NCBI GenBank assembly: GCA_963712385.1
Contig: CAVQHS010000009.1
Coordinates: 603,146 to 667,145 of the forward strand
Source of the DNA: an uncultured Acidobacteriaceae bacterium
Lineage (GTDB): Bacteria; Acidobacteriota; Terriglobia; Terriglobales; Acidobacteriaceae
Reading direction: 5' to 3'
Length of the DNA stretch: 64,000 bases
Shown: one piece after another, positions 25,431-50,082 of the stretch
Numbering within the stretch: position 1 is the first letter of the stretch
Layout of the letters: every line of letters starts with the position of its first letter
Program-made: the position numbers and the translations under genes
The notes under the pieces: model-generated
The model's input: the letters and a program-made list of their open reading frames with translations, nothing else
Database searches by the model: none
What the model was told of the DNA's origin: nothing

Positions 25431-25458
25431 CCCCTAGACCTTGTGACGCGCCGCAGAG

Positions 25459-28401: not shown

Positions 28402-28660
28402 ATCTACAGCACTTCTGTGATTATAGAAGGGTTTTCAGAAGTTCTATACGGTTTAATGGAGGCCAGTGTGGAATTTTGTAGGAGAAGGTTCCATCTCAGT
28501 GCGGCTTTGCTTCCGTCGCAAGCGGGATAGAAGAGATTCGTCTGGAGGGGAACACTAGGGCGTGCGCCGAGTTGGGTTTTCTGTCTGGCCTGCGCCAGTA
28601 AAATCGGCGAGAATGTCACGGCAACCGGGTGCAAAACAATTCCAACGCAGGAAAACAGCC

Positions 28661-29380
28661 ATGGCAACCAACACCCAACTCACCATTCGGGCTCAGGCAA
28701 AAGGCGGCATGTTCCTGGGTCCCGACAGTTATAACGGAGCGATCATCACCGTTCGCGACGGCTCGACCATTCTGGCCGGGCCTGCATTTACCAACCAGGG
28801 CGATTCCGGCACGCGTTCCACGAGTCAAGTACCCGGTTCGTCCCCGTATCAGATTAGAACGCCGCTTCTACCTCCCGCCTTCTATTGGGTGGTCGCTGCC
28901 GATACCACGGTCAATTACACCGCGATGTTCAACCTGTCGACGCCGAAGATGGTCACCGTCGAAGCACGCGTGCCGCTGCCAGCGGCACAGGGCGATCAAA
29001 TTGCCACGGCCCAGGTGATGGTCTCTCCCGGCCAGCAACCGAGTCTCCCAGGGTTTGTGATCGAAATTCCGGGACTCTGGGTGCAACCGGAACTGGTTGT
29101 GCTGGGGAACGTGGTGAACTGGAAGACCAAGGTTGCGATGATGTGCGGATGCGAAATCAACCTCAATAGCCCCTGGATTCCCAGCGACTTTCAGGTCTCC
29201 GCACAGATCATAAAGCCCACGGTCCAGCCGCCGGTCAGCTTGAGTTTCAATTTCAACAGCCAGTATGTAGGACAGACCCAAGTCCCTACCGCCAACTACA
29301 CGGCAGAGATCAGCGCACGCCAAATCAGCACGGGAAACGCGGGAAAGGCGACGATACAATTTCAGGTGCCGCCTGGTTAG
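28661..29380 (+). CDS. Hypothetical beta-rich protein (239 aa), no signal peptide
   Basis: ATG 28661 opens MATNTQLTIRAQAKGGMFLGPDSYNGAIITVRDG... Composition is ordinary. No family recognised. Confidence 0.5.
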   Translation: MATNTQLTIRAQAKGGMFLGPDSYNGAIITVRDGSTILAGPAFTNQGDSGTRSTSQVPGSSPYQIRTPLLPPAFYWVVAADTTVNYTAMFNLSTPKMVTVEARVPLPAAQGDQIATAQVMVSPGQQPSLPGFVIEIPGLWVQPELVVLGNVVNWKTKVAMMCGCEINLNSPWIPSDFQVSAQIIKPTVQPPVSLSFNFNSQYVGQTQVPTANYTAEISARQISTGNAGKATIQFQVPPG

Positions 29381-29433
29381 CGTTACGGAAGTCAAATCTC
29401 CCAGCCGCGACTGCAGCCAGTTCGCAGGAACCA

Positions 29434-29646
29434 ATGAAGCAGCACATTACCGGCTTCCATCAGGATGATGAAGGGCACTGGGTGGCGGAATTAGCTTGTG
29501 GACACACCCGGCATGTGCGCCATGATCCGCCGTGGCAGTTGCGTCCCTGGGTGACTACGGAGGAGGGTCGCGCGGCGAAGATCGGAAGCACGCTGGGATG
29601 CAAGAAGTGTGATGAGGCAGCCGCGACCGAGTCTCAAGAAGGTTGA
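29434..29646 (+). CDS. DUF3565-like small protein
   Basis: 70 aa. ITGFHQDDEGHWVAELACGHTRHVRHDPPWQLRPWV matches my memory of the DUF3565 signature. Confidence 0.6.
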   Translation: MKQHITGFHQDDEGHWVAELACGHTRHVRHDPPWQLRPWVTTEEGRAAKIGSTLGCKKCDEAAATESQEG

Positions 29647-29813: not shown

Positions 29814-30215
29814 CTACGACGGCCAAGGCATCGGGTGTTGGTTTCCCGGCGACAGGCTGACGCGGATCACATTCATCAGTTCGTCGTTGTCGGCAGGCTT
29901 CTGAAAAAATGCCGATGCTCCTGCCTTCAGGGCGCGTTCTTCATTGGCCTGCGGATCGCGCGCGCTGAGCACGATGACGGGTATGCTCGAAAGCGAATCG
30001 ATGGCTTGCAAACGGTCGAGCACCACAAAGCCATCGCCCACGGGTAAGCCGAGATCCAGAATGATCAGCGCTGGCCGTTCTTTCTGCGCGGCGGCCACGG
30101 CGGTATAACCGTCGGTTGCCGTGGTCACTTCATAATTGCTGGCCCGCAGGCGCAGGCGCAGGGCTCGGATTAAATCGGGATCGTCGTCGACTACCAGAAT
30201 CTTCGGTTTTGCCAT
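29814..30215 (-). CDS. Single-domain response regulator (CheY-like receiver)
   Basis: KILVVDDDPD...ALIILDLGLPVGDG...IPVIVLSA...KP. Confidence 0.85.
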   Translation of the reverse strand: MAKPKILVVDDDPDLIRALRLRLRASNYEVTTATDGYTAVAAAQKERPALIILDLGLPVGDGFVVLDRLQAIDSLSSIPVIVLSARDPQANEERALKAGASAFFQKPADNDELMNVIRVSLSPGNQHPMPWPS

Positions 30216-30244: not shown

Positions 30245-31846
30245 TTAATTGCTGCCCGGCGCCTTGGCGGCGGGAAATGGTTTCCGATCCATATTTCTGA
30301 CAATCATGTCGTTGACGCAGTCAGCCAAAACTTGAACCTGCTGCTCCTGAGTTTCTCTGCGATTCTCCGCGGGAAGCTCAACCGGCAGCGTGGAGATGGT
30401 AAGTTTGGATTTGGACTGGAGCTCGGGAATGCGCTCCAGTTGTTCCCGTATACGCGCGGTCATCACTCCCGAGCGCTCCATATCGGTGGAGGCCACGACG
30501 AAAAACGTTTCGGCCGCGCCGGAAGCTCCCATGGGAGGAAGCACGAGGTCTTTATCGAGATACACGCAGCGGCGCAGGATTTCGAGGGCTTGCTGCCAGG
30601 TGTCCTTCCAGTTGCCGCGCGGGGGGTTGGTGAGCGGCATGAGTTCCACCCTGACCAGCACGAAGCATGGGCGTAATTGATTCTGGTAGGTGACAACCGG
30701 GGCAAGCAGCTTGGCCAGAGAGTAGAGCGGCAAAGTAAACGTGAAAGTACTGCCTTGCCCGGGTTCGCTGGAGACCCAGATGCGACCCTGATGAAGCCTC
30801 ACAATCTCGCGGCAGATGAAGAGACCCAGCCCCAGGCCCGAGCGATTGTTGTCAATGGACTCGCTATCTTGATAAAGGCGTTCAAAAATCAGCGACTTGG
30901 CTTCCGGGGAGATACCACGACCGGTATCGCTGACGGCAACATAAACAAAGCCCGGATCGGCATCCACCATGCTGGCTTGCAACATTACGGAGCCGTCCGG
31001 CGGCGTGAACTTGATGGCATTGTCCACGAGATTGATAAGCACTTCGAGAACGCGGTCGGGATCGGCATACACCAAGCGCAGCCTTTGGTCGATTGCTATT
31101 TCGAGTCCGATCTTTTTTTCCTTTGCGGTGGGCCGCAGCATGGCAACGGTCTGCTGCATCAGTTCGCTGAGCGCGATGCAGCGCGGTTCGATGCGCATCT
31201 TGCCGCTCTCGGCGCGCGTGGCTTCCAGCATGTCGCGGATCATGGCGTGCAGTTGATTCACGCTCTTCAGAATCGTCTTGAGATGATCGTTCTGGTCAGG
31301 CGCCATTGGACCGGCTAGTCCATCGAGAAGCAGCGTCACGTACTGGTGAATGCAGGTAAGCGGGGTGCGCAGTTCATGCGAGACGTGGGAGAGGAACTGG
31401 TTCTTGAACTCCAATTGCTGCTTCTGCGTGATCTCGATCGCGCGGATAAGGCCCTGCCGCTCCACGGCATAGCGGATCGCGCGCTCGAGGTGCTTGCTGG
31501 ATAGATTGCCCTTTACCAAATAGTCCTGCACGCCTTGATGCACAGCTTTCATGGCCAGCGCTTCATCATCCTGGCCGGAGAGCACGACTACCGGCACATT
31601 CGGCGAGTGCTCGATGACACGGCGAAAAGTTTCCGCTCCCCGGCTGTCGGGCAGATTCAGGTCCAGCAAAACCACCGAAGGAGTTTCGACGGTGAGCGAT
31701 GCGAGACCATCGGAGAGCCGATTCACGCAATTTACTTTCACCGGAGCCCGGCCTTCTACCAGGCGAAGGCGAACCAGATCCGCATCTCCGGGGTTATCTT
31801 CGATCAGAAGTACGCTTGTCATGGGGCGATCCATTGTGTTCTTCAC
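30245..31846 (-). CDS. Hybrid REC-HisKA-HATPase kinase with a ~160-aa C-terminal extension of unknown function
   Basis: REC (VLLIEDNPGDADL, VVLLDLNLPDSRG). H-box SHVSHELRTPLT. G-boxes DTGRGI and GLGLGLFICREIV. A non-kinase tail follows residue ~375. Confidence 0.85.
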   Translation of the reverse strand: MKNTMDRPMTSVLLIEDNPGDADLVRLRLVEGRAPVKVNCVNRLSDGLASLTVETPSVVLLDLNLPDSRGAETFRRVIEHSPNVPVVVLSGQDDEALAMKAVHQGVQDYLVKGNLSSKHLERAIRYAVERQGLIRAIEITQKQQLEFKNQFLSHVSHELRTPLTCIHQYVTLLLDGLAGPMAPDQNDHLKTILKSVNQLHAMIRDMLEATRAESGKMRIEPRCIALSELMQQTVAMLRPTAKEKKIGLEIAIDQRLRLVYADPDRVLEVLINLVDNAIKFTPPDGSVMLQASMVDADPGFVYVAVSDTGRGISPEAKSLIFERLYQDSESIDNNRSGLGLGLFICREIVRLHQGRIWVSSEPGQGSTFTFTLPLYSLAKLLAPVVTYQNQLRPCFVLVRVELMPLTNPPRGNWKDTWQQALEILRRCVYLDKDLVLPPMGASGAAETFFVVASTDMERSGVMTARIREQLERIPELQSKSKLTISTLPVELPAENRRETQEQQVQVLADCVNDMIVRNMDRKPFPAAKAPGSN

Positions 31847-32276
31847 TCTCCTCGTGGCGGCAGGCTCACCGAGCCGAACCAGAATCGTTCAATCGACTTC
31901 ATCACGGAAAAAAACTCGGTCAGGTTTCCGGGTTTGCTGAGGTAGCAGTTGGCTCCGAGTTCGTAACTGCGCGCAATGTCGCTGCCCAACTGCGAGGTGC
32001 TAAAGATAACCACGGGAATCTTGCGCAACTCCGGGCTCGCCCGCATTGCCGCCAGCACCGCCAAGCCGTCTCGTTTGGGCAAATTCAAATCCAGGATGAC
32101 CAAGTCCGGTCTGGTCGCGTTGGTGTAGCTTCCCCGGCGGTCCAAGAACGCCAGGGCTTCCGCACCATCCCCCAGACTCCTGATTTGTCCGCGATAAGCG
32201 CATGCCGTAAGCGCCTCGCGGGCTAAAGCAATATCGGCAGGATTGTCATCCACGATCAGCAGTTCGTGCGCCGGCT

Positions 32277-32286
<10 letters not shown>
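31843..32286 (-). CDS. Single-domain response regulator (Rcp1-like)
   Basis: LLIVDDNPADIAL...PDLVILDLNLPKRDG...IPVVIFSTS...ANCYLSKP. The start overlaps the upstream kinase by 10 nt. Confidence 0.85.
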
Positions 32287-33469
<1,183 letters not shown>

Positions 33470-33473
<4 letters not shown>

Positions 33474-33940
33474 AATGCATGCTCAACTGAGCTGGGGGTG
33501 CCGATGGGAGGCCGATTGATTACCATCCAATACAGGCCCGCGAGCTTGACCGTCTTCCGGAATTCGCCGAAATCCACCGGCTTCTGCAGATAGCTGTTGG
33601 CGCCGAGTTCGTAAGCGCTGACCATGTCGCGCTCTTCTCGCGAAGAGGTCAGGAGCACTACACAAATATTGCGCGTGCGAGGATCGCTTTTGATCTGCTT
33701 TAGGACCTGCAGACCATCCACCTTGGGCAGTTTGAGATCGAGCAGGACCAATTTCGGCGGGCGTTCGAAGCAACGATCAGAGTGCGGGCCGGTACAGAAA
33801 AGGAAATCCAGCGCTTCCGCGCCATCGCGCACGACAAAGACGCGGTTCGCGAGATTCTCCGCGCGCAGAGCGTGGATAGTAAGGTCCACGTCGTCTTTGC
33901 TGTCATCCACCAGAAGTATGTCAACTTCATTCACATTCAT
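33470..33940 (-). CDS. Single-domain response regulator (Rcp1-like)
   Basis: [13 protein letters not shown]...[14 protein letters not shown]...VVLLTSS...ANSYLQKP. Both ends have 4-nt overlaps with the neighbouring genes. Confidence 0.85.
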
Positions 33941-36900
33941 GTTCGAACTCCGGCCACAGCGGTTTTGCCCGCAGGTTCGGTTAGCTCAACTGGTGAGGAG
34001 TTTCCAGCTTCCGTCCGGTCTGGCTTGACGGCGCTTGGTTGAGCCGCGGTGATGGTGAAAAAGAAAGTCGCGCCTTTGTCCGGCTCCGCCTCGGCCCACA
34101 CCCGGCCCCCGTGCTTGTGGATGATGCGTTGCACAGTCGCCAGGCCGATGCCTGTACCTTCAAAATCCTCGGCGCGGTGCAGGCGCTGAAAAACCCCAAA
34201 CAATTTGTCCATGTACTTCATATCGAATCCGACGCCGTTGTCGCGCACGGTGAAGATCAGATTTCCGTTTTCCGGGCGGCAACTGATTTCAATATCGGCG
34301 CGTTCCCGCGGACGCGTGAATTTAAGTGCGTTCGCGATCAAGTTCTGGAATACCTGCTTGATCAGTACGGGATCACACGGGGCCAAGGGCAGGCTGGCAA
34401 TCCTCCAGTTCACGGCCCTTCCAGCAATTTCGGGCTGCAGCAGAGAGATAACCTCTTCAACGATCGAGTTCAGATTGGAACTCTGAATCCGCAGCGCGTG
34501 ACGGCCAACGCGCGCCAAATTCAGGAGTTCATCCACGAGCAGCCCCATCCGCTGCACCCCATCCTCGATGCGGAGCACGTGGTCACGGGCCTCAGGTGCA
34601 AGTTCGGGGCCGAAGTCCTCGATCAGAATTCGTGAAAAACCGCCGATGTGCCGCAGCGGGGCGCGCAGATCGTGGGAAACCGAGTAGGTGAAGGCTTCCA
34701 GTTCGCGGTTGGCGGTCTCCAGTTGCGCGGTCCGTTGCACCACTCTCTCTTCGAGTTCTTCATTAAGCTTGCGAGTTCTCTGCTCCGCCGCCCTGCGCTC
34801 GGTGACGTCGCGGAAGGCGACGACTCCGCCGCAGAGGTTGCCATGAGCGTCCTTCATAGGGCGCGCCGTAAATCCGAGAAAGGCCGGATTTCCCTGATCC
34901 CGGTTCGCAACAATCAACTCGACTTCCGCAGACTCTCCGTTCAGAGCTCGTACCAGCGGCAGGCCATCCGTGGGACATGGCGTGGTCCCGTCGAGCTGAT
35001 AGGTCTGGTAATAAGCGGCCCACTGGTCAGGCGGCAAGTTGGCTGGGCCGCGGCCCAGCAGCTTTTTCGCGGAATCGTTCCAGATGAGAAAGTGCCCTTC
35101 GCGATCGGCAGCAATCAATCCCTCGCCCGTGCTCTCCAGCACTAGCTCGAGCATCCGGGTCTGCGCCTCGAGGGCCTCACCGGAGCGGGCCAGCTCCACA
35201 GCTTGGCGTGAGAGCTCCTCCGCCTGGCCTGCGAGTTGCTGTTCTGCCTGCTTTCGTTCGCTGATATCCGTGTTCGTGCCAAACCAGCGAGCCACGCGCC
35301 CTTCCGAGTCTTTTACCGGCATCACGCGCGTGAGGAATTCGCGATAAACCCCATCCGCGCCGCGCAGGGGAAACTCCATCTCGAAGGGGTTGCCGCTGCT
35401 AATCGCGCCCTTCCATCTTTCCAGCACCTTGGGCAGCACTGTAGGATCGTGGACGGTCTGCCAGGCCCATCCCTGCATCTGCTCGAATGTAGTACCCGTG
35501 TATTCGTACCAGCGCTGGTTGTACCAAAAGATATGTCCGTCGGGATCGGCCATCCAGGCCAGTTGCGGGATGCCGTTGGCCATGGCCTGGAAGCGTTCTT
35601 CGCTTTCATGCAGCGCGTCTTCCGCTCGTTTGCGTTCAGTGATGTCGCGTGCAATTTTAGAAGCGCCCACAATCGCGCCCCTGTCGTCTCGAATCGGCGA
35701 AATCGTCACCGAGACGTCAATCTTCCCGCCGTCTTTCCGGAGGCGGACGGTTTCAAAATGTTCCACGCTCTCCCCGCGCCCGATGCGCATCAGAATGTCA
35801 GCTTCCTCGCCCACGCGCTCCGGCGGCATGAGAAACATAATTGATTTGCCCACGGCCTCCGCTGAGGAGTAGCCGAAGACCTTCTCGGCACTGCGATTCC
35901 AGGCGTTAATGGTTCCATCGAGGGTTTTGCTGATAATGGCGTCATCGGATGAGGCAACAAGGGCGGCCAGGTGGGCGTGAGCTTCCTCCACTCGCCTGCG
36001 CTCGGTGACATCCGCGCGGATCGCCATATATTGCCGGGGTTTGCCTTGGGCGTCGAGGAAAGGGACGACGGTTGTGTCCACCCAGTAAATCGAACCATCC
36101 TTGGCGCGGTTGCAGATCTCGTCCCGCCACACTTGTCCGCCGGCAATCGTGCGATACATCTGTTGGAAGAATTCTTTGGGGTGGTGGCCGGAGTTGAGGA
36201 TTCGGTGGTTTTTCCCGATCAGTTCTTCTCGTGAATATTGGCTGATGGCGCAGAACTTGTCGTTGACATACGTAATGGTTCCATGAACGTCGGTGGTGGC
36301 GACGATCGCGTGCTGGTCGAGAGCAAACTTCTGGTCGGCCAGGTCGTTAAGCGCAGCCTCGCTGGCGGCGAGGCTCTCTTTCAGCACCTCGTCGGCATGC
36401 TTGCGCTCGGTGATGTCGGCGAACGTAACTGCCAAATGACCCTGGTGGGTGCGGAATGCCGTCACCTCGAACCATCTCTGCAGCGGCTGCGCATAGTCCT
36501 CGAAATGAAGCGATTTTCCTGTTGTCACGACCTTGCCGTAGGTTTCAATCCAGAAAGGCTCGATACCGGGAAGAACCTCACGAAGAGTTCTCCCCAGGAC
36601 GTCGTCACGGGACAAGCCAGTGTGGGTTTCAAAGGCGGAGTTTACCTCCAGATAGCGCTGGTCGCAGGGCTTGCCATTCTCGTCATAGACGGCTTCGAAC
36701 AGCGCCAACCCCTCCAGCATTTCACTAAAGAGGAGACGATAGCGTTGCTCACTCTCGTGCAGCGCTTCTTCCGCCCTCTGGCGCTCGCTGACATCCCGCA
36801 CAATAGCGGTGAAGATCTTCCTGCCCGCGGTTTCGATCTGTGAGATCGCGATCTCCACCGGAAACTCGGTGCCATCCGTGCGCAATCCCGCCAGCACTCC

Positions 36901-37815
36901 CAGCTGGCCCATCACACGATGCGTGGTTCCGCTCTCATGGAAGCGCTGGTGATGTTCCAAATGCGCGGCGCGAAAACGTTCCGGAATGAACCGGCTAAGC
37001 GGGCTCCCGAGTGCTTCCTCGGCGGGACAATGGAATATTTCCTGGGCCGCCGCATTGAACAACAAGATGTGCTGCTGCTCGTCCACGGCGATGATTGCGT
37101 CCATGGCCGACTGGACGACTGCGTCGAGGCTGCCCTGGCTTTCCCGCAGCGCCGCCTGCACCCGTTGCAGTTCTTCGATGGCGGACTTCCTGTCCGCCAA
37201 CTCCGCCAGCGTGCGCTCGCGCTCTGCCAGAGTTTCTCTCAACTGCTGCTCCACCAGCTCTCGCTCGACAATCTGTAATTCCAGTTCACGGTTGACTCTG
37301 CGCAACTGTTGCGGACTGGGCAAAGCGATGGCCTTCGGAAGCAGCGGAATGAGCATGACGGCCGTTGCAACCGAAGCCGCCGCGGTGGCTGCTTTGACCA
37401 TGCCGGAGAGCACATAAGAAGCCCGCCAGACAGTCCATATCTCCATCAAATGCGTGGTGCCGCAGCCCAGGATGAACACGCCGAACATCCAGAAGGGCCA
37501 CTTAAACGGAAGGTCGCCGCGTCGCCGCAGAACCAGATAGATCAGCGCCGGAGGGATGCAGTAATACGAAAGCGTGATCAGACCGTCAGAGATGACATGC
37601 AGCCAAACGATCCACGGGTCCCACATGTAGCAGTAGCCGTGCGGCATGAAGTCTGCCGACCGCGCCGCCGCCCTCCGGATGGCCCCGGCGGCAAGCCAGA
37701 CCGACCCGGCGACCAGAGGGATGGCGATCCCGGCTTTGCCGAGGCGAGATGCCGTAGCGCGCTTCACTTGCTCGATGACTCCTTTTAGCCTTGGGTCTGT
37801 GAAAGGAAAGAACAA
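33937..37815 (-). CDS. Sensor histidine kinase: ETR1-like ethylene-binding-type TM domain, coiled coil, six PAS domains, HisKA, HATPase
   Basis: 1292 aa. Residues ~57-160 are [38 protein letters not shown]...[20 protein letters not shown]...[11 protein letters not shown]. Six ...D[IV]TERK/R...-terminated PAS modules follow. H-box [17 protein letters not shown]-boxes DNGVGF and GTGIGLATV. Confidence 0.9.
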
Positions 37816-38024
37816 GCTGCGATAACGCTTTGGACGCAGCCTCGTCAGTCTGAGTTATCGGCGAGGCGGGGGCGAGCTTTAAGGCGGGAAGTGTTGCGGC
37901 AAACCAAGGTACTAATGTGCGATTTTCGAGTAAGAATTTACTTAACTGGTTTATTGCGTCATTATTGGGTCAATTTAGTTACGGTGCAGTTCGATTCCAG
38001 CCGCGATGGGGCGATAGATTGCAG

Positions 38025-38078
38025 CCCACGCCGTAAGGCGTGGGTGGAAAGTGGAAAGGAAACAAGCTCCGAAGGAGC
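38025..38078. repeat. REP-like paired hairpins
   Basis: cccacgcc-gtaa-ggcgtggg (38025..38044) and gctcc-gaa-ggagc (38066..38078). The spurious translation is ...PRRKAWVESGKETSSEGAQE... Lies just 3' of rmuC. Confidence 0.5.
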
Positions 38079-38102: not shown

Positions 38103-39474
38103 TCAGCCCACCTTACGTTCTGGCGTTTCCTCCGGGGCGTCTTCATCCCAGTCAAACGAAAGCGCCCGAGCCGTAGTCTCAACCGGCTGAAGTTCCGGAA
38201 TATCCTCCGCCACGGAAGCGCCCAACTCCGCAAACTTTCGCGCCGAAACGAGAACCCGGCTCTCCAGCGACCCTACGGCCTTGTTGTAAGCTTCGACCGC
38301 ACGGTCGAGTCCCGTGCCGACTGAGGTAATATGTGCGGCAAGGAGACGCAGGCGATCATGCAGTTCCTTGCCCAGCGCGCTGATCTGCTGCGCGTTGCGC
38401 GCCAGCTTTTCCTGGTTCCATCCGTAATTAATGGCCTTTAACAACGCGATCAGAGTAGTAGGCGAAGCCGGGATCACACGACTCAGGACTCCGTGCTCAA
38501 TCAATCCGGAATCCTGCTCAAGCGCCGCGCTGAAAAAAGTTTCGCCGGGAAGAAACATCACCACGAACTCGGGCGTCGAGTCGAACTGCTCCCAATATTT
38601 CTTTCCGCTAAGCGTATTCATGTGATCGCGCACCTGCCGCGCATGATTGGCCAGGCAGAGGCGGCGCGCATCTTCATCCGTAGTCTCGAAAGCATCCAGA
38701 AAAGCCTGCAGCGGCGTTTTCGCATCGACAACGACATTCTTTCCGCCGGGCAGCTTTACGACGAGATCGGGCCGCAGCCGCCCGCTCTCGGTGCTCACCG
38801 TTTCCTGCTCGGTGAAATCGCAGTAAGACAACATGCCGGCAATCTCAACCACCCGCCGCAGCTGAATCTCTCCCCAACGCCCGCGAACGTTGGGCGTGCG
38901 CAGCGCCCGCACCAAGATTTCCGGTTTGCGATTGCAGTTCTTTCTGGGTAGTGATCAGCGACTGTACCTGGGCGCGGAGTTCGCCGTAGGCGTCGCCACG
39001 CGCCACTTCCATTTGCTGAATCTGCGTGTCCACCTTATTCAGCGACTCGCGCACCGGCGTGACCAAGTCAGAGACAGCCTTTTGTCGCGCTTCCAGGTCG
39101 CCCCTCGCCTCCGTCTGAAACCGCTGCAGGCTCTCTCTCGCCAGCGTGAGGAAGGATAAGTTGTTGCTCTTCAGCGCGTCGGAAGCCATGGCCTTAAACG
39201 CGTTTTGCAACTCCTCGCCGGCCCGGGTCACTAACTCAATCTTTTCGTTGTTGCCCTTTCGTTCCGCCTCCAGAGCCGATTCGAGCCTCGCTTTATCCGC
39301 GATCAGTTCACCCTGAACCTGCAAGAGCCGCGCCAGATCCGCCTTTCCAGCCGATAATTCCTTTTCCATCAGAGACAAACGAGCCTGCAACGCAGCCGTA
39401 CGCCCGCGCAGCGCCAGCCAAGCAATCACGCTGCCAAACAACAGGCCAATGACCCCAGCCATGCCAGGTCCCAT
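38103..39474 (-). pseudogene. rmuC: DNA recombination protein RmuC, interrupted by a 1-nt insertion
   Basis: The N-terminal TM plus coiled-coil part (ORF 38845..39474) ends ...[11 protein letters not shown] and then reads nonsense. The nuclease part (ORF 38103..38915) starts at (L)[27 protein letters not shown]. Removing one G from cttGGtgcgg (CC at 38912-38913 on the + strand) restores ...[15 protein letters not shown]... Confidence 0.75.
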
Positions 39475-41676: not shown

Positions 41677-42174
41677 TTAACGTGCTGCCACTGCGTGATC
41701 GCTCATCCGCCGCTTGTTGTACCGCAGTGCGACGTTCATAAACACATTGCCAAGGGAGGTCTCAAAGCAGATCATCAGAGCCTCAACATCTTCGCTGGTC
41801 TTATCGCCCTCCGCCGAGGTGAGTAACACGGGAGGATGCACGCGGAAGTGAAAGCCTTGATCGTTCAAGGCGGAGACGGCGTTGCCCACAACCTGGTTGG
41901 CTAGTTCGAAGATGGTTTCTTTGATCAGGCCGTCAGACTCGGGAAGGTCGGCGCCCGCGTAGTGGCTGGCTACGCGCACGGCCGTCTGCGGCTCGAGATC
42001 GAGAATGATGCGCCCCTCAATGTCTCCGGTGAGCCCCACCATGCCGGCCACGCCTTTGCGGCGATAGCCCTGCTCATCCATGGTGAGGTTCTCCACCTTG
42101 GTGGTTCCTGAAAGACCTTGCGACAACACAGCGTCGGCCGCGTTGATGAAAGGCTGGATCAGTTCCATCTTCAT
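41677..42174 (-). CDS. cheX: CheX/CheC-like chemotaxis phosphatase
   Basis: 165 aa. Its length, its position after cheY, and VGLTGDIEGRIILDL...ELANQVVGNA resemble CheX. Confidence 0.6.
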   Translation of the reverse strand: MKMELIQPFINAADAVLSQGLSGTTKVENLTMDEQGYRRKGVAGMVGLTGDIEGRIILDLEPQTAVRVASHYAGADLPESDGLIKETIFELANQVVGNAVSALNDQGFHFRVHPPVLLTSAEGDKTSEDVEALMICFETSLGNVFMNVALRYNKRRMSDHAVAAR

Positions 42175-42179
42175 TGCAA

Positions 42180-42620
42180 TCAGGCCCCCGCGCCGGCCGT
42201 GTTAGCGACGGCGCCGTCTTCTCCCATTACGTACTTGATAACTTCGTAGAGAACTTCCGGCTTCACCGGCTTCTGCACGAAATGCCGCGCCCCGCGCTGC
42301 AAGGCGGCTACGATGTTCTCCTGATAGCCGACGGAGGAGACCATGACGATGCGAGCGTCGGGATGCGCCTGAACGATTTTTTCGGCAGCCTCGATACCCT
42401 CCATCTGCGGCATGGTGATATCCATCAGCACGATATCCGGATGCGTGCGATCGAACTCGCTGATGGCAGTTAAGCCGTCGCCGGCTTCCCCGGCCACCTG
42501 ACCGCCGAACGTTTCAATCATCCGCGCAAGATTCTTACGCGCGAAGACAGAATCGTCCACGATCAAATAGCGGACGGACTGCCCGTCTTTGCTTCGTTTT
42601 ACTGGTGCGAACTGCTCCAT
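42180..42620 (-). CDS. cheY: Chemotaxis response regulator CheY
   Basis: YLIVDDSVFARKN, DIVLMDITMPQMEG, VMVSS, FVQKP. Single receiver domain inside the che cluster. Confidence 0.85.
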   Translation of the reverse strand: MEQFAPVKRSKDGQSVRYLIVDDSVFARKNLARMIETFGGQVAGEAGDGLTAISEFDRTHPDIVLMDITMPQMEGIEAAEKIVQAHPDARIVMVSSVGYQENIVAALQRGARHFVQKPVKPEVLYEVIKYVMGEDGAVANTAGAGA

Positions 42621-42705
42621 AACAACCTCCCCTTCGCAATTTCATCACGTCGGTTACACGCCAGCCAGATGACTGAAGTCACCCTGCCTGGCGTTCCGCA
42701 TTGCT

Positions 42706-43806
42706 CTAAAGTCCAACGCGAAGCGCCTTCTTTCCTACGCCTTCGGAGTTCTCACCTCGGCCGCAAAGCGCCTGCAATGTGGAAGAAAGCACATCCAGAG
42801 CCACCACCCGAGTGGCATAACCGCGTTCAATCGCGGCTTTTGGCATGCCAAACACCACGCAGGATTCTTCGCTCTGCGCGACGGTAACGCCTCCGGCTTT
42901 CTTCACCGCTCCAAGTCCCTCAGCTCCGTCGTCTCCCATTCCGGTCATTAAGACGGCGATTCCATTGCGGCCAAATTCGTTCGCCAGGCTTTGAAACAGA
43001 ACATCCACGCTGGGACGATGGCCGTTGACCGGAGCTTCGTCATTGAGCACTACGACGTCACCCATGGGCAGGTGCTTCACCGTCATGTGTCGGCTGCCCG
43101 GGGCAATAAACACGCGCCCTGCCTGCAGTTGGTCTCCTGATTGGGCCTGCTTTACGCGCAGCGCGCACATATCGTCCAGCCGGCGCGCAAACATGTCAGT
43201 GAATCCTTCCGGCATGTGTTGGACTACTACGATTGCTCCGGGAAAGTCGGCAGGAAGTTGCGCCAGCAGATATTCGAGCGCCTGCGGCCCGCCGGTGGAG
43301 ATGCCGATGGCGATGGTGCGTGCGGGAGATTTTGCCAGTTTTGCGGGCGCCAACTTGGCGGGACGGGGCGGAGCCGTGAGCAGCCATCCTGAACGAACCA
43401 CTTTGCATTCTGCGGCGACCTTGATCTTCGCAATCAGTTCCCGCGCCGCGTCAGCCATGTGCAAGGTCGCATCGTGCGGCTTGGCCACAAAGTCGAACGC
43501 ACCCAGTGCCAGAGCCTTGAGCGTGATGGAAGCGCCTTCAGTGGAATGCGAGCTCACAACGATTACCGGCAACGGCTGCCGCCGCATGACTTCCTTCAAC
43601 GTATCGATGCCGTTCATGCCCGGCATTTCCAAATCGAGCGTGACCACGTTGGGCTGCAGTTCTTCGATTTTCTTCAGGCAGAAGCTGCCGTCCATCGCGG
43701 TGCCGACGACCTCAATGGAATTGTCCGTGGCCAACATTTGCGGGATCAGCTTCCGCATCAAGGCCGAGTCGTCGACCACCAGAACGCGCACTTTATTACT
43801 GCTCAT
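42706..43806 (-). CDS. cheB: Protein-glutamate methylesterase CheB
   Basis: REC domain (VLVVDDSALMRK, VVTLDLEMPGMNG) plus an esterase domain (IGISTGGPQAL, VVQHMPEGFT, LMTGMGDDGA). Confidence 0.9.
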   Translation of the reverse strand: MSSNKVRVLVVDDSALMRKLIPQMLATDNSIEVVGTAMDGSFCLKKIEELQPNVVTLDLEMPGMNGIDTLKEVMRRQPLPVIVVSSHSTEGASITLKALALGAFDFVAKPHDATLHMADAARELIAKIKVAAECKVVRSGWLLTAPPRPAKLAPAKLAKSPARTIAIGISTGGPQALEYLLAQLPADFPGAIVVVQHMPEGFTDMFARRLDDMCALRVKQAQSGDQLQAGRVFIAPGSRHMTVKHLPMGDVVVLNDEAPVNGHRPSVDVLFQSLANEFGRNGIAVLMTGMGDDGAEGLGAVKKAGGVTVAQSEESCVVFGMPKAAIERGYATRVVALDVLSSTLQALCGRGENSEGVGKKALRVGL

Positions 43807-45980
43807 GCCCGGCCTCCGGCGGTGCCCAGAGCCAGACGCGCACGGTCGGCCGCATTCAGCAAGAGGCCAAAGCTGCTCATGCCCGTTTCGTCCCGCCGGA
43901 ATTTCGAGATATGTTCTACTACTGCTGGCAAGTTGAGGATCAGCACTACTTTCCCATCTCCCAGGATGGAGGCGCCGCTTACCAGATCGGTGGAGAAAGT
44001 TTGATCGTCCAAAGCTTTGATCACTAATTCCTCTTCGCCTTCGAGTGCGTCGACGATCAACCCGTATTTCTTCTCGCCGACCGTGATCACTAAAACGAAC
44101 AGCTTGCCCTTGCGATCTCCATCCGCGGGAGCGCCGCGGCCAAGGCGCAGCAGAGGCATGACCTGGTTGCGAAGCTGCCAGACTTCATAGTTGTCCACCT
44201 GATGAACTTCGTTCTCGGTTGTGCGTGCGATCTGGCTAACGGCGTTCAGCGGAATCGCGTAGAGCCGCTGTTCCACCCAGAACATGAGCGCCTTGATGAT
44301 GGCCAGCGTGAGCGGAAGCTTCAAACGGAACGTTGTTCCTTGCCCGGGGCGAGTCTCGATGTGAATGGTGGCCTTCAGACGTTGCAGTACGCTTTGCACC
44401 ACATCCATGCCTACGCCACGCCCGGAAACCTCGGTGACTTGCTCGGCGGTAGTGAAACCGGGACGGAAAATCAGCTCCACTGTCTCCGCTTCGCTCAGGC
44501 GCGCGGCTTCTTCGGCAGTAATGATTCCCAGCTGGATGGCTTTGTCGCGAACCTTCATGGCGTCGATTCCGCGCCCGTCGTCGGTGACTTCAACTACCAC
44601 CTGATTGCCCTGATGAAAGGCGTGCAAGCGAATCGTTCCCCGGTGTGCCTTGGCTAAGTTTTTGCGTTCTTCGGGCGGTTCAATGCCGTGACTGACAGCG
44701 TTTCTGACGAGATGCGTCAGAGGTTCGGCAATAGCGTCCAGAATGCCCTTGTCCAGATCCGTTTCCTGTCCACTCAGTTCGAGATCGACTTCGCGACCGC
44801 ATTGCAGCGCCACATCGCGCACGATGCGCGGAAAACGGCGGAATAGTTGATCCACCGGGACCATTCGAATCTTCATCACCGAGCGTTGCAGATCGTTGAG
44901 CACACGTGACTGAAAGGCCATGGCATCGGCGAATTTTCCGCGCAGCATTTCTCTGGGATAGCGTTTGCCGAACTCGATCATGACTTGTTGCAACATCGAT
45001 TTGCCGATGATGAGCTCTCCGACCAGGTTCAGAACGTTGTCGATGCGTCCAGCTTCCACGCGGAGGATATTCTCTGTTGCTGGCGCCTGTACCGGAGTTT
45101 CCTGCGCTGGGACGATGGTCTCGGCTTCCGAGAAAGACATCTCAGGTGGATTCTTCTCCGCAGCTTCCGTCGTGGGTGGTTCCGGTGACGCCGAAACCGT
45201 TTCCTGGGGCTTCTCGGCTTCTCTCGGTTCGGCCGCAGCAATCAGAGTTACACTGACTTCGCCCGCAATCGTCGGAATGCGGACTTTGGCGGCAATCTCA
45301 CGCTCGGAGTGTGAACTCGCGAGTACGAATTCCACCTGCTTGGCCGCAGCAGCCGATCTCGCATCGGGCCGTGCCATCAATACTTGGCCGATGGTGCTGA
45401 TCGCGTTCTGAAGAAGTTGGCGCGCTGCGATCGGCATGGCGCAATGCGGATCGATCTTCACCATCACTTCATGCAATGCCAGACCTGCGGCCCGGGCCTG
45501 AGCCATCGCCTGCTTCTCGGTAGCGGTCCAGTTCTTGCCGGAATCCATGCGGCCTTTGGCGGTCTTCTTTGTGGAGCGCGATTTCTTGGCGGCGGGAGCA
45601 GTGGTCAATTCTCGCACGCGCTTTCGCAATGCGTCCGTAGGAGGAAGGGAAGCTCCTCTGTGATATGCCGCGAGCATCTCGGCAAAAACATCCGCAGCAG
45701 TAAACGCAATTTCCGCCAGCGCCGCATGCGCAGCCGCGCTTTCCAGGGAGAGCGCATCTTCAAACTGATGCGCCAGTTCGCTCAACTCCCGGAATCCGCA
45801 CGCCGCCGAATCTCCCTTCAGCGTGTGGACCACGCGCCGGATGGAACGCACGATCTCCTCGTCGCCGGAATTTTTCTCCAGCTTCAGGGTCTCGTCGTTC
45901 AGCGTCTGCAGCAGTTCCTGGGAAGTTTCGAAGAAAAGTTCCCGCAGTTCTGCTCCACGCTCATCAGGACCGTCTGTCAC
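43803..45980 (-). CDS. cheA: Chemotaxis histidine kinase CheA
   Basis: Hpt VHTLKGDSAACGF. Dimerisation and HATPase domains (HLVRNAVSHGIE, DDGRGID, GRGVGMDVV). C-terminal CheW-like domain. 4-nt overlaps with cheR and cheB. Confidence 0.9.
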   Translation of the reverse strand: MTDGPDERGAELRELFFETSQELLQTLNDETLKLEKNSGDEEIVRSIRRVVHTLKGDSAACGFRELSELAHQFEDALSLESAAAHAALAEIAFTAADVFAEMLAAYHRGASLPPTDALRKRVRELTTAPAAKKSRSTKKTAKGRMDSGKNWTATEKQAMAQARAAGLALHEVMVKIDPHCAMPIAARQLLQNAISTIGQVLMARPDARSAAAAKQVEFVLASSHSEREIAAKVRIPTIAGEVSVTLIAAAEPREAEKPQETVSASPEPPTTEAAEKNPPEMSFSEAETIVPAQETPVQAPATENILRVEAGRIDNVLNLVGELIIGKSMLQQVMIEFGKRYPREMLRGKFADAMAFQSRVLNDLQRSVMKIRMVPVDQLFRRFPRIVRDVALQCGREVDLELSGQETDLDKGILDAIAEPLTHLVRNAVSHGIEPPEERKNLAKAHRGTIRLHAFHQGNQVVVEVTDDGRGIDAMKVRDKAIQLGIITAEEAARLSEAETVELIFRPGFTTAEQVTEVSGRGVGMDVVQSVLQRLKATIHIETRPGQGTTFRLKLPLTLAIIKALMFWVEQRLYAIPLNAVSQIARTTENEVHQVDNYEVWQLRNQVMPLLRLGRGAPADGDRKGKLFVLVITVGEKKYGLIVDALEGEEELVIKALDDQTFSTDLVSGASILGDGKVVLILNLPAVVEHISKFRRDETGMSSFGLLLNAADRARLALGTAGGRA

Positions 45981-46888
45981 TCCCGCACCTCAATCCGCTG
46001 ATATGCCGTTCCGCTGTCGCGATGCACCATCTTGAATTTTTCGGTTATCCCCAACAGGCTCTCCGCGTGTCCCACAAACAGATAGCCGCCGGGGTTCAAG
46101 CATCGGTAAAACTTCTCAATCAGCCGCTTCTGCTCCGGTTCGTCGAAATACATCATCACGTTGCGGCAGAAGATTACGTCGTTGCGTTGGGGCAAGTACT
46201 CCGTCTTCAGATTGTGGAAGTCGAAATGGACGATTTCTTTCAGAGCTTTCTTGATCGCGTAGCGATCACCGACTTTGTCAAAGTAGCGCAGACGGTAGGC
46301 GTAATCGACGGTGCCCATCTGGTGCTCGCTGTAGGCGGCTTCCTGGCCGGTGCGCAGCACCGAGTAGCTGATGTCGCTGGCCAGAATTTCTACGCGCCAC
46401 GGAGGCGGAATTAAGGGTTTCGGCAGAGCGATTTCGACGGGCAGCGGATTGCGCAGATAATAGTAGGCCAGCGAATCGGCCGACAACATGCCCAGCGTGT
46501 AGGGTTCCTGTCCGGTGGAGCAGCCCGCGCTCCAGATCCTTATGGAATATTCCCGCCGTGCTTGCTTCTGCTTCAACATCTCCTCCAGCACGTGCTTTTG
46601 AAACAGATCCAGTTGCGCCTTGTGCCGGAAGAAACTGGTCTCGTTCACCGTCAGGTTTTCGACCAATTTGGCCAGTTCGTCTTTGCCCTCGCGGCTGATC
46701 AACAGGCGATAGTAAGCGTAAAAGGAGTCGGCGCGGCATTCCTTCAGCCGCCGCAGAAGCCGGTCCTGCAGGAAGTGCATGCGCCGTTCATCGAAGTGCA
46801 TGCCGCACTCCTGATAGACCAGCGCTTGTAGGAGCCGAAGTTCCGCTTCCGTCAAAATGGGAGCTGGCGCCGCTCCGGATGTACTCAT
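45977..46888 (-). CDS. cheR: Chemotaxis methyltransferase CheR
   Basis: NETSFFRHKAQLDLF, IRIWSAGCSTGQEPYTLGML, DVIFCRNVMMYFD. Confidence 0.9.
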   Translation of the reverse strand: MSTSGAAPAPILTEAELRLLQALVYQECGMHFDERRMHFLQDRLLRRLKECRADSFYAYYRLLISREGKDELAKLVENLTVNETSFFRHKAQLDLFQKHVLEEMLKQKQARREYSIRIWSAGCSTGQEPYTLGMLSADSLAYYYLRNPLPVEIALPKPLIPPPWRVEILASDISYSVLRTGQEAAYSEHQMGTVDYAYRLRYFDKVGDRYAIKKALKEIVHFDFHNLKTEYLPQRNDVIFCRNVMMYFDEPEQKRLIEKFYRCLNPGGYLFVGHAESLLGITEKFKMVHRDSGTAYQRIEVRE

Positions 46889-46945
46889 TCGTGTCCTCGT
46901 TCTATGCGCGCACTCATCGATTTCGTCTGTCGAATTCCCATCGCC

Positions 46946-47440
46946 TTACTTGCCGGCAACCGCTTTTCGCGTTTCTTCCGAAGCTGTTTTCTTCGCCTCC
47001 GTTTGCAGCAAACTCGCGGGCGCTAGCAGCTTGTTCATATCGAGCAGAACAATGAGCCGGCCCTTGACTTTTCCCAGCCCAGTCACGCAATTCAGTCCGC
47101 CTTCCTGAAATGCGGCCGGCGGAGCTTCCACATCTTCGTTCGGAATCTTCACCACTTCAGAGGCCGAATCCACAATCAATCCCGCCAGCTTTCCTGAATG
47201 CTCCACCACCAAGATTCGATTGCGTCTCTTGCCTTCGACTTGCTTGACGCCGAAGCGCTTGCGCAGGTCCATCACGGAAACAATTTTTCCCCGCAGGTTG
47301 ATCACGCCTTCGAGATAGTCGGGTGCGTCAGGAACTGCCGTAATTTCCGGGACGCGCACAATCTCGTGCAGGGAAGTGATGGGCACGCCGTAGGTCTCGC
47401 GCCCAACCTGGAAGCCAACGATATGGAGTTCGCGATTCAT
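46946..47440 (-). CDS. cheW: Chemotaxis coupling protein CheW
   Basis: FQVGRETYGVPITSLHEIVRVPEITAVPDAPDYLEGVINLRGKIVSVMDLRKRFG. Confidence 0.9.
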   Translation of the reverse strand: MNRELHIVGFQVGRETYGVPITSLHEIVRVPEITAVPDAPDYLEGVINLRGKIVSVMDLRKRFGVKQVEGKRRNRILVVEHSGKLAGLIVDSASEVVKIPNEDVEAPPAAFQEGGLNCVTGLGKVKGRLIVLLDMNKLLAPASLLQTEAKKTASEETRKAVAGK

Positions 47441-47457
47441 CGCTCGTTCGTCAATTT

Positions 47458-49440
47458 CTAGCGGCGTGACCCAGCCGTTGCGCGGCGCGCATGTTGCGGC
47501 CTGTCTTCAGGCTCGTGCTCGCGTGATTCAGACTCGTCGAGCGTGAAGCGGTCGAGGTAGTCGAGCAGGCCGCGCGACATCTTCGACATCTGCTCGGCAG
47601 ATGCGGCCAGTTCGGTCGAGCCAGAAGTCGACTGCTGCACCAATTCGCGCATCCGCTCCATCGCTTTTACCACTGCCTGTGCTCCAGATGCCTGCTCTTC
47701 GACGGCCGAGTTGATTTCGTGGGTGATTTCGTTCAGCCGCGTGGTCGCGCGCGCAATTTGAGACGAACCGTGAGACTGCTCATTCGTAGCAGCGCCGATT
47801 TCCTGCGCGAACTTGTAGACTTCCGTGACGACGTTCGAAATCTTGCGCAACGCCGAGTTCAGCTCGCCGCCCAGATCGAGACCCTCGTTCACGATGCCGG
47901 TCGAGCGATCCATGTTCTCTACGGCCTTGCGGGCTTCCTTTTGAATGCTTTGAATCAGTTCGGAGATTTCCTTGGTCGACTGCGCTGACTTTTCCGCCAG
48001 CTTGCGGACTTCATCGGCGACCACCGCGAAGCCCAATCCGTGTTCGCCGGCGCGCGCCGCTTCAATGGCCGCATTCAGCGCCAGCAGGTTGGTCTGCTCG
48101 GCCAGATCGTCGATGACTTCGATGATCTTTCCGATATCGTCGGCTCGAGCTCCGAGTGCTCCGATGATCTCACCCGAAGAAGTGATGGTGGCATTGATAC
48201 GGTTCAGGCCGTCGGTGGCCTTTTCCATCGTGGTGATGCCGCTGTGAACTTCTTCGCGGGAGCGGTTGGAAATGTCGAGTAGCACCTTTGCCGTGTCGGC
48301 CACGCGCTGAATGGAGGCGACCATCTGATCGATGGAAGCCGAAGTTTCGCTTACGCTGGAAGCCTGCACCTGCGTGCTCTTCACCATGTTCTGCACGTTC
48401 ACGCTCATCTCGTGCATGGTGCTGGTAACTTCGTCGATGGCGGAAGAAGCTTGCAAGCCGACTTTGGCGGAATCATCCGAGGCGTTGGCGACCTGTCCGG
48501 ATGCGCTCGCCACTTGTGCTGAAGCGTCGCGGACGCTGCGCACTAATCGTGCCAGGCCTTCCACCATGCGGGCGAACGCGTTGCCCAACGTGTCGTGCGG
48601 AGAACGCGGCTTCACTTCCACGGTCAGATCGCCGCCCGCGATGGATTCGGAAACGCCCGCCATTTCCTTGAGGTAATTCACCATCTTGGCAAACGAGCGC
48701 GCCAGTTCTCCGATTTCGTCCTGGCGGGTTGCGTCGATGTTGTGTTCCAGGTCGCCCGTGTCGCCGATCTGCCGCGACACGATCATCAAGTTCGTCAGCG
48801 GCTGGGTGATCGATTTCGCCGTGGTGAAAGCGACGAACACGCCGAGCGCCAAAGCTACGAGAGTGCTAAGAACCGCCGCTAGAATCGTCCACGTGCTCGC
48901 CGTCTGATCTGACTTACTCCGTTCGTCCACTAGTTTGTGATTTTCGGCATCGGCCACATCGAGAGCGTCGGTTGAATTCTTCACCCAAGAGGATGCGTCT
49001 TTCTGCAGGTAGTAAATCTGCAACTCGGCAACTGTCGCGTTCCCCGAGTCCACGTCCTTGCGTTTGTCGATCAACGGTTGCGCAAACTCTTTGCCCCACG
49101 ACTGTTCCAGTTGTTCCACCCGGTCCAGCGCGGAGTGCTCCTGATCGGAATTCGCGAGAGACTTGCCCAGTTGCAGTTTCTCGTTGAGGATTCTCAGCCC
49201 CTCGTTCATCCGGTCCACTTCCCGGCTGTCTCCGCTGAGCAGGTAGTTGCTCAGGTAGAGGCGATTCTGCATCATCTGGAAGCGGACCTGGGTGGTGGCA
49301 TCCGTAAGCTCAATCGACTTTTTGGCGGCCGCTTTAGCGTCATGCTCCCGCTGCACCGCCAGAATGTTCACCAGGAACAGCACCACCACCATCCCCAGAA
49401 TGATTCCGAAATTTACATAAAGCTTTTTGCCGATCGTCAT
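47458..49440 (-). CDS. Methyl-accepting chemotaxis protein (two TM helices, helical periplasmic sensor, HAMP)
   Basis: TM1 [21 protein letters not shown], a ~160-aa helical ectodomain, TM2, and HAMP. Signalling hairpin [36 protein letters not shown]. Confidence 0.9.
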
Positions 49441-49815: not shown

Positions 49816-49849
49816 AGTTCCTCCTCGGGAATGTATTGCCTTGCTTCCG

Positions 49850-49865
49850 AGCAACGCCGTGGCCA
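49850..49865 (-). promoter_or_regulatory. Candidate sigma-54 (-24/-12) promoter of the chemosensory operon
   Basis: The minus strand reads TGGCCACGGCGTTGCT. GG and GC are separated by exactly 10 nt and a TTGC -12 element is present (consensus TGGCACG-N4-TTGCW). It lies 35 nt upstream of the GTG 49815 start. Confidence 0.6.
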
Positions 49866-50082
49866 CGTCTCACTTTCCGCGAAAACCAAAGTCACGTTCG
49901 CGATGTGCGTGCAAAAGACGGACTTAAGACAAATCGTCAGATTCTGGCGAGACTTCGCCCCGGGATTAGCCACGTCTCATAACCGGCCGAGCCCGCCTTC
50001 ATTCTCAAAGTGAGAGCGATCAGGGCTGAATTCTCGGGATTTCACACTTTGGCACCTGCTCCTGCATTTTTCTTGACTCAAA

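Follow-up and report, generated by a model that had tools for sequence, protein, structure and literature searches.

A predicted ethylene-sensing histidine kinase with six PAS domains at a conserved phosphorelay locus of an uncultured Acidobacteriaceae bacterium

Ethylene is a plant hormone. Bacterial members of the family of ethylene-binding domains (EBDs) have been known for two decades, and to our knowledge the role of ethylene receptor has been proven for just two of them, from a cyanobacterium and a plant-associated alphaproteobacterium. Here we analysed a sensor histidine kinase gene whose product begins with such a domain. It lies in a 64,000-nucleotide (nt) stretch of DNA, called the window below, from an uncultured Acidobacteriaceae bacterium (assembly GCA_963712385.1, contig CAVQHS010000009.1, positions 603,146 to 667,145). 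We consider it probable, at about 0.68, that the protein is a copper-dependent, ethylene-sensing membrane histidine kinase of the bacterial ETR1_N subtype that feeds a cascade of receiver proteins.

The plant receptors ETR1/ERS1 and ETR2/EIN4/ERS2 belong to the same domain family as this kinase, with nine key residues conserved. Two of these, I35 and P36, are said to be among the ETR1 residues needed for binding or signal output, reportedly from work by Wang et al. in 2006. In ETR1, the copper is held by C65 and H69, with D25 and K91 as supporting residues (PMC11819568), and approximately one ion per monomer is located between C65 and H69 (PMC6586836); mutants of Y32, F61, I62, C65 and H69 lose binding (PMC8879215). 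Roles of key residues are also given in PMC6682694. The plant receptors signal via CTR1 and EIN2, not by phosphotransfer, while AzoEtr1 of Azospirillum brasilense, validated as an ethylene receptor in 2025 in PLoS Genet, signals as a classical two-component kinase (PMC11819568). Both the cyanobacterial SynEtr1 and AzoEtr1 bind ethylene, as do Geitlerinema cells with GeiEtr1 and GeiEtr2 (PMC11819568, PMC6682694). SynEtr1 is a dual-input receptor that responds to ethylene and light (PMC6682694).

The locus described here has the AzoEtr1-type layout, namely an EBD followed by PAS, HisKA and HATPase_c domains, with an overlapping response-regulator gene. In both proteins the three-helix EBD carries seven ETR1 binding residues and precedes PAS and histidine kinase modules, and in both loci the response-regulator gene overlaps the stop codon of the kinase gene; for AzoEtr1, this comparison uses the published description. 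Since its layout matches that of a validated receptor, our reading of the locus has a precedent. AzoEtr1, at 525 amino acids (aa), is nevertheless shorter, with a single PAS domain and a single response regulator. The kinase here has 1276 aa, six PAS domains, two of which probably bind cofactors, and an additional N-terminal helix, and five genes with receiver domains lie downstream of it.

A reading of the letters of the window (the original prediction) had proposed an ETR1-like domain in the N-terminal part of the listed open reading frame (ORF) 33937..37815 on the minus strand, which encodes 1292 aa from a TTG codon. Translating positions 37336-37647 of the minus strand reproduces its 104-residue peptide exactly, with Cys118 and His122 at the positions that it gave. 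Below, residues are numbered either from the TTG (ORF numbering) or from the GTG codon that we favour as the start (GTG numbering, equal to ORF numbering minus 16).

The profile search that the original prediction had proposed gave a strong match to the N-terminal model of ethylene receptors. ORF residues 69-165 match the Pfam family ETR1_N (PF25487) with 124.9 bits against a cutoff of 27 (E 1.6e-36), over profile positions 2-97 of 97, i.e. essentially the whole model; in NCBIfam, no model covers the N-terminal part of the kinase. The Arabidopsis ETR1 N-terminus is 98% identical to the cluster representative P0261, which is named 'ethylene receptor'. Using BLASTP, the EBD is 35% identical to this plant protein over 107 residues (E 4e-19). 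Comparison by hhalign of a profile of 46 acidobacterial sequences with one of 10 plant, charophyte and liverwort sequences gave a probability of 99.4% (E 5.7e-21). The similarity to the cyanobacterial GeiEtr2, whose sequence was taken from the supplement of PMC6682694, is closer, with 58% identity over 119 residues (E 6e-52). The N-terminus is thus, judged by its sequence, a genuine and intact member of the ETR1_N family. It is of the bacterial, cyanobacterial-like subtype by the same kind of evidence, because it has in common with GeiEtr2 the MPHGxCYxW lead-in, the HL(M/L)E(I/V)W motif and the LPSPxxLRxxN linker. A single N-terminal Cys is a further likeness between the two proteins, and the linker motif extends to LPSPxxLRxxNxxLE in both. 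No second copy of the domain is present in the window, where the best other tblastn match has an E-value of 0.057.

Every ETR1 residue reported as required for copper or ethylene binding has a counterpart in the EBD as aligned (Table 1). The original prediction had placed the Cys-x3-His pair on C65 and H69 of ETR1, and the alignment agrees, with D25, Y32, I35, P36, I62 and K91 conserved as well. In a MAFFT alignment, the mapped key positions are conserved in 75-79 of 79 acidobacterial homologs. Among 34 invariant or near-invariant columns of a 51-protein alignment, 29 fall within the EBD, and they include membrane-embedded polar Asp, Cys, His, Glu and Lys residues. The Cys of the PHGxCY motif (C62 by ORF and C46 by GTG numbering) is the counterpart of ETR1 Cys6 in the alignment, and the bacterial subtype has an invariant Glu three residues past the copper His. 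The plant receptors differ in having Asn at the position of this Glu, two N-terminal cysteines rather than one, and a loop between helices 2 and 3 that is three residues longer.

The AlphaFold2 model, built on 46 sequences, has a mean predicted local distance difference test score (pLDDT) of 78.6. Its helices span residues 8-36, 43-49, 51-82, 89-114, 118-139, 142-148 and 152-175 (GTG numbering), of which 51-82, 89-114 and 118-139 form the EBD. The three long helices anticipated in the original prediction are therefore present in the model, with Cys102 and His106 both on the second of them, one turn apart. Four Lys or Arg residues are found in the loop between helices 1 and 2 and three in the segment after helix 3, a charge bias that fits an N-out, C-in topology as in ETR1.

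The N-terminus of the protein was assigned by comparison with orthologs. The N-termini of close homologs coincide with Val17 of the listed ORF. An AGGAG-N11-GTG arrangement is found at that start in 12 of 13 orthologous loci that have the extra helix, and in four of those orthologs there is an in-frame stop 6-11 codons upstream of the GTG. Because of this conserved spacing and these upstream stops, the kinase likely starts at GTG 37767, which would give a protein of 1276 aa. The same observations, i.e. where homologs begin and the stops just upstream in orthologs, rule out TTG 37815. Met57, which the original prediction had offered as an alternative start, can be dismissed as well, since both the hydrophobic helix upstream of it and the ribosome-binding site of that helix are conserved. 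Neither the exact 1276-aa nor the exact 1292-aa sequence has a match in public assemblies.

With the start at GTG 37767, the additional hydrophobic helix (TM0) is translated and precedes the three-helix domain. Thus, the original prediction was right about the helix, which is conserved, and wrong about the TTG start on which it had made the helix depend. TM0 is preceded by a conserved basic tail with four Lys or Arg residues and followed by AAARS. About one in four of the 80 best homologous loci encodes it; in the remaining ones, the proteins start approximately 10 residues ahead of an F-(M/L)-PHG sequence. TM0 either stays in the protein as a signal anchor, which would make it a fourth membrane helix, or is a signal peptide that is cleaved off; in both cases, the PHGxCY segment would be periplasmic as predicted from the sequence. 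Plant receptors of subfamily 2 (ETR2/EIN4/ERS2) also have an additional N-terminal hydrophobic stretch, whereas the cyanobacterial receptors have an N-terminal stretch of about 30 residues without an extra transmembrane helix and, like the kinase here, a single N-terminal Cys (PMC6682694).

Scans for sigma-70 promoters and terminators gave background levels, with no recognisable signals. Between rmuC and the kinase gene, a sub-threshold Rfam match to the Acido-Lenti-1 RNA was found at 37999-38044 (-) (34.8 bits against a gathering score of 37, E 5.8e-5), which contains the hairpin CCCACGCC-TTAC-GGCGTGGG. A conserved leader RNA of this type was ruled out, as four orthologous loci lack it.

After the EBD, Pfam detects six PAS stretches followed by HisKA and HATPase_c, which bears out the six-PAS histidine kinase architecture of the original prediction. 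No GAF domain, the module that follows the membrane part in plant receptors (PF01590 in plant homologs), was found in the kinase by Pfam; the EBD is instead followed by a probable coiled coil and the PAS array. In cyanobacterial receptors, the EBD is paired with GAF or cyanobacteriochrome photosensory modules, in contrast with the haem- and flavin-type PAS domains found here. The transmitter module is complete as judged from its motifs (Table 1).

PAS1 resembles the haem-binding PAS domains of FixL and DosP. Of its 14 matches among PDB sequences, 13 are named FixL, DosP or haem-PAS proteins, and the remaining one is an uncharacterised 'multi-sensor signal transduction histidine kinase'. The E-values are 8.4e-18 for BjFixL, 5.7e-13 for DosP and 6.4e-12 for EcDOS. 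His285 aligns with the proximal His200 of BjFixL, and Arg291 and His299 with Arg206 and His214. About 13-15 of the 80 homologs have an orthologous PAS1 directly after the EBD; none of the 15 orthologous PAS1 domains lacks the proximal His, and nearly all have Met302. In a pairwise comparison with EcDOS, Met302 is two positions off Met95. PAS1 is thus probably a haem-binding PAS domain, with His285 as the candidate proximal ligand.

PAS3 matches 3ewk (E 2.2e-51), Aer (8dik, 1.5e-19) and NifL (2gj3, 4e-16). The PDB search labels 3ewk only as 'Sensor protein'; we take it to be the FAD-bound PAS pair of Methylococcus MmoS. The PAS domains of Aer and NifL are presumably redox sensors that bind flavin adenine dinucleotide (FAD). 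On the strength of these matches PAS3 is probably an FAD-binding redox PAS domain. MmoS, NifL and Aer themselves are not known to be linked to an EBD. A photoreceptor of the LOV type was considered for PAS3 and ruled out, since a His replaces the photoactive Cys of the GxNCRFLQ motif. PAS3 is the commonest PAS domain of the family, with counterparts at >=50% identity in 49 of the 80 homologous EBD kinases.

PAS2, PAS4, PAS5 and PAS6 have generic or weak PDB matches only. PAS2 (36352-36762, minus strand) has a single weak match, to 3fg8 (E 3e-5), and no counterpart at >=40% identity among the 80 homologous kinases; it seems to be a lineage-specific insertion. The best match of PAS4 (35602-35982, minus strand) is the PAS domain of a 'CTR1-like protein' (5iu1, E 4e-11). 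CTR1 is a kinase of the plant ethylene pathway, and the match probably reflects generic PAS similarity. The original prediction had routed the signal through the PAS domains. All six are there, but an array that serves merely as a passive conduit is not what we found, given that two of them look like cofactor-binding gas or redox sensors.

The kinase gene is the first of six genes on the same strand, encoding a histidine kinase, a receiver (REC), a REC-kinase hybrid, a REC, a second REC-kinase hybrid and a last REC. The first five genes overlap start to stop, and the sixth follows the fifth after 29 nt. Gene 4 fills an apparent 430-nt gap, so that kinases and receivers alternate along the cassette. 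The multi-kinase cascade envisaged in the original prediction is thus encoded in the form of two hybrid kinases and three stand-alone receivers downstream of the sensor.

Synteny was counted over 77 complete homologous loci. A homolog of the gene 2 receiver is directly downstream of the EBD gene in 52 of them, mostly with the same 4-nt overlap; gene 3 has a syntenic homolog in 43 loci, and in 34 a homolog of gene 5 follows the EBD gene at a distance of approximately 2.1 kb. Furthermore, rmuC is just upstream in 20 loci, as in the window. Genes 1, 2, 3 and 5 recur in that order in many Terriglobales genomes. The kinase locus is an orthologous, conserved locus.

Table 1. Positions of features of the kinase gene and its operon in the window, with the counterparts of ETR1 residues
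Feature	Position	Strand	Details	Basis
Sensor histidine kinase gene	33937..37767	(-)	1276 aa from GTG 37767	ORF, Pfam and ortholog start comparison
Domain order of the kinase gene	33937..37767	(-)	Extra helix, EBD, probable coiled coil, six PAS, HisKA, HATPase_c	
Shine-Dalgarno-like AAGGAG	37779..37784	(-)	11 nt upstream of GTG 37767	Read directly
Extra N-terminal hydrophobic helix (TM0)	37678..37734	(-)	19 residues	AlphaFold2 helix 8-36; protein-level conservation
PHGxCY motif	37627..37644	(-)	Predicted periplasmic side	Invariant in 79/79 homologs; also in GeiEtr1 and GeiEtr2
ETR1_N ethylene-binding domain	37321..37611	(-)	Three transmembrane helices	Pfam PF25487; residue mapping; AlphaFold2 helices
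Cys118-x3-His122	37450..37464	(-)	Predicted Cu(I) ligands	Alignment with ETR1 C65/H69; kept in 78/79 homologs
Counterpart of ETR1 D25			D77 (ORF), Asp61 (GTG); helix 1	MAFFT alignment
Counterpart of ETR1 Y32			Y84 (ORF), Tyr68 (GTG); helix 1	MAFFT alignment
Counterpart of ETR1 I35			I87 (ORF), Ile71 (GTG); helix 1	MAFFT alignment
Counterpart of ETR1 P36			P88 (ORF), Pro72 (GTG); helix 1	MAFFT alignment
Counterpart of ETR1 F61			F114 (ORF); helix 2	MAFFT alignment
Counterpart of ETR1 I62			I115 (ORF); helix 2	MAFFT alignment
Counterpart of ETR1 C65			C118 (ORF), Cys102 (GTG); helix 2	MAFFT alignment
Counterpart of ETR1 H69			H122 (ORF), His106 (GTG); helix 2	MAFFT alignment
Counterpart of ETR1 K91			K141 (ORF), Lys125 (GTG); helix 3	MAFFT alignment
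Helical linker between EBD helix 3 and PAS1	37144..37320	(-)	Probably a coiled coil	AlphaFold2 helix 152-175, pLDDT 90-97
PAS1	36766..37143	(-)	ORF residues 225-350; FixL/DosP-like, probable haem binding	PDB sequence matches
PAS3	35980..36348	(-)	ORF residues 490-612; probable FAD redox PAS of MmoS/Aer/NifL type	PDB matches
Transmitter	34048..34698	(-)	HisKA with H-box SHDLRAP (His1048); HATPase_c with N, G1, F and G2 boxes	Pfam; motifs
Gene 2, stand-alone REC	33470..33940	(-)	156 aa; start overlaps the kinase stop codon by 4 nt	Pfam
Gene 3, REC-HisKA-HATPase hybrid kinase	32277..33473	(-)	398 aa	Pfam
Gene 4, stand-alone REC	31843..32286	(-)	147 aa; overlaps both neighbours	ORF; Pfam Response_reg E 1.8e-18
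Gene 5, REC-HisKA-HATPase hybrid kinase	30245..31846	(-)	533 aa	Pfam
Gene 6, stand-alone REC	29814..30215	(-)	133 aa; last of the cassette	ORF; Pfam Response_reg E 8.3e-26

When 1.84 billion representative proteins were scanned in full with HMMER, 8,406 clusters, defined at 50% identity, had EBD matches at E <=0.001, of which 6,242 were retained at 1e-10 and 1,517 at 1e-30. The EBD is therefore not rare; it is a large, curated Pfam family. The statement of the original prediction that such domains are predicted in some bacteria and tested in very few holds as regards the small number of tested members, but SynEtr1 was joined by AzoEtr1 in 2025 and the family amounts to some 8,400 clusters. Close relatives of the kinase were detected at 254 loci in a search of one genome per species, the best match being 86% identical. 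Of the best 80 of these loci, 78 are from Acidobacteriota (Acidobacteriaceae, Terriglobales and Candidatus Sulfotelmatobacter), and many of their records come from metagenome-assembled genomes of bog, peat and soil. All 51 full-length homologs that were scanned contain ETR1_N, with PAS domains in 47-48, HisKA in 46, HATPase_c in 45 and CHASE3 in 10. The EBD is thus the constant element across kinases with varying PAS arrays. We found no open-access literature on acidobacterial ethylene receptors or PF25487, and prior mention in the main surveys is possible.

Based on these features, the following mechanism can be proposed. TM0, as a signal anchor or a signal peptide, would place the PHGxCY segment in the periplasm, where Cys46 may form an inter-subunit disulfide, as Cys4/Cys6 do in ETR1. 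In each subunit, Cu(I) would sit between Cys102 and His106 with support from Asp61 and Lys125, and ethylene would diffuse in from the membrane and bind to the copper. The resulting shift of helix 3 could be transmitted by the coiled-coil linker to the PAS array and alter autophosphorylation at His1048 of the H-box. On the way, the signal from the EBD would merge with those of PAS1, through its probable haem (O2, CO, NO or redox), and PAS3, through its probable FAD (redox). Phosphate would be passed to the translationally coupled receiver encoded by gene 2, and then probably through the two hybrid kinases, each followed by its own stand-alone receiver.

Several observations weigh against a copper-dependent ethylene sensor of this kind. 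A search of PDB sequences with the membrane domain found no relative at E-values up to 10, and a Foldseek search of the PDB with the AlphaFold2 model returned only non-significant helical bundles (best E 0.9); the three-helix fold is thus a predicted one. In P0012, a homolog from Edaphobacter sp., Gln replaces the copper-ligand His (GCGATQLMEIW), and some EBD family members may have lost copper binding. For the acidobacterial members in general, ethylene and copper binding is predicted. We found no genes for copper chaperones, copper transporters or ethylene metabolism in the 64-kb window. As to the haem input, the position of the distal Arg220 of FixL is a Gly in PAS1, and no match was found in this domain to the distal ligand-sensing residues of FixL (Arg220) or EcDOS (Met95/Arg97); its haem binding is predicted from the proximal side, where it resembles FixL and DosP. 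Finally, no output domain is encoded in the six-gene operon, so the physiological response is not readable from the sequence.

Given these points, other roles of the membrane domain have to be weighed. It might bind copper and report another ligand, such as CO, other alkenes, isonitriles or NO, or else the level of available copper or its Cu(I)/Cu(II) redox state. Ligand tests cover only a handful of family members, the invariant PHGxCY motif and the invariant Glu after the copper His set the bacterial subtype apart from plants, and probable haem and flavin PAS domains are typical of redox and gas sensing. However, PHGxCY and the Glu are also present in GeiEtr2, and the bacterial receptors that were tested, SynEtr1 and AzoEtr1, bind ethylene, as do Geitlerinema cells. 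Moreover, conservation extends beyond the copper ligands to all ETR1 ethylene-binding residues, and we consider a different ligand unlikely. From these residues we infer that the EBD binds ethylene.

It is more improbable still that the EBD is a ligand-free membrane anchor or dimerisation module and that sensing is left to the cytoplasmic PAS domains. Six of them, two with likely cofactors, could suffice for that purpose, and the PAS content varies widely among homologs. Nevertheless, the same comparison shows the EBD to be constant while the PAS arrays vary, and plain anchors drift fast, which is at odds with the concentration of conserved columns, polar membrane residues included, in this domain. 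As for a cation-permeable pore formed by the membrane domain in addition to or instead of sensing, as proposed for plant ETR1/ERS1, a preprint describes plant receptors as permeable to Ca2+ and raises the idea of testing their bacterial homologs (bioRxiv 10.1101/2025.10.20.683334). That claim concerns plant receptors, nothing in the sequence bears on a pore, and the histidine kinase and receiver cascade already provide a complete output path; we regard this hypothesis as very improbable. The ethylene-sensing kinase is thus the reading that we retain.

We tentatively consider a more elaborate version of it, which is possible but on balance doubtful. The kinase would integrate three inputs, copper/ethylene, haem with O2, CO or NO, and flavin/redox, and pass them into a conserved three-tier cascade by which Terriglobales of peat and soil detect waterlogging, anoxia or nearby roots. 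By analogy, the extra helix would then be the bacterial counterpart of the leader of plant subfamily-2 receptors.

Signalling genes abound in the window: besides a chemotaxis cluster, it holds two sigma-54 activators and two more large kinases. Upstream of the kinase gene, rmuC is split into two overlapping ORFs (38103-39474, minus strand): the ORF at 38103-38915 corresponds to RmuC profile positions 57-289 and that at 38845-39474 to positions 2-56, both on the minus strand, which suggests a frameshift, a pseudogene or a sequencing error. A complete chemotaxis cluster at 41677-49440 (-) codes for CheX, a CheY-like REC, CheB, CheA, CheR, CheW and a methyl-accepting chemotaxis protein of the CHASE3-HAMP type, and is followed by a gene for a TonB C-terminal domain (49471-49866). 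On the plus strand, positions 50083-55969 harbour a GAF/PAS histidine kinase of 1336 aa, of which approximately 390 N-terminal residues have no family match, and then a receiver and a sigma-54 activator. Just past the cassette, a 980-aa histidine kinase with PDZ, seven-transmembrane, GAF and PAS domains and an NtrC-type sigma-54 activator are encoded at 23991-28401 (-). The region between the cassette and this kinase (28562-29646, plus strand) contains a 272-aa ORF without Pfam match, then a 70-aa DUF3565 ORF (29434-29646). Menaquinone biosynthesis genes at 5220-6116 (-) and 13091-14218 (+), of the VitK2_biosynth family and the CofH/MqnC-like radical SAM type, look like those of the futalosine route.

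Because the family is curated and large, its bacterial members have long been known and the layout of AzoEtr1 is proven, the kinase adds to a known type, and knowledge of the EBD family itself is unchanged by the find. What is noteworthy is the combination of a conserved extra helix, a pairing of haem- and flavin-like PAS domains and a conserved multi-tier cascade in a poorly studied soil phylum. Acidobacteria, which are difficult to study, rank among the most abundant bacteria in soil. Ethylene accumulates in wet, oxygen-poor soil and near roots; a sensor that combines ethylene, oxygen and redox signals would therefore tell the Terriglobales of peat and soil of waterlogging or of nearby roots. 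Should the integration of all three inputs prove true, ethylene perception would be widespread and ecologically important in an abundant soil phylum. Many Terriglobales genomes carry an intact EBD at a conserved locus, together with probable oxygen and redox sensors and a conserved phosphorelay. The locus thus offers a testable handle on how Terriglobales read gases and, perhaps, their plant neighbours.

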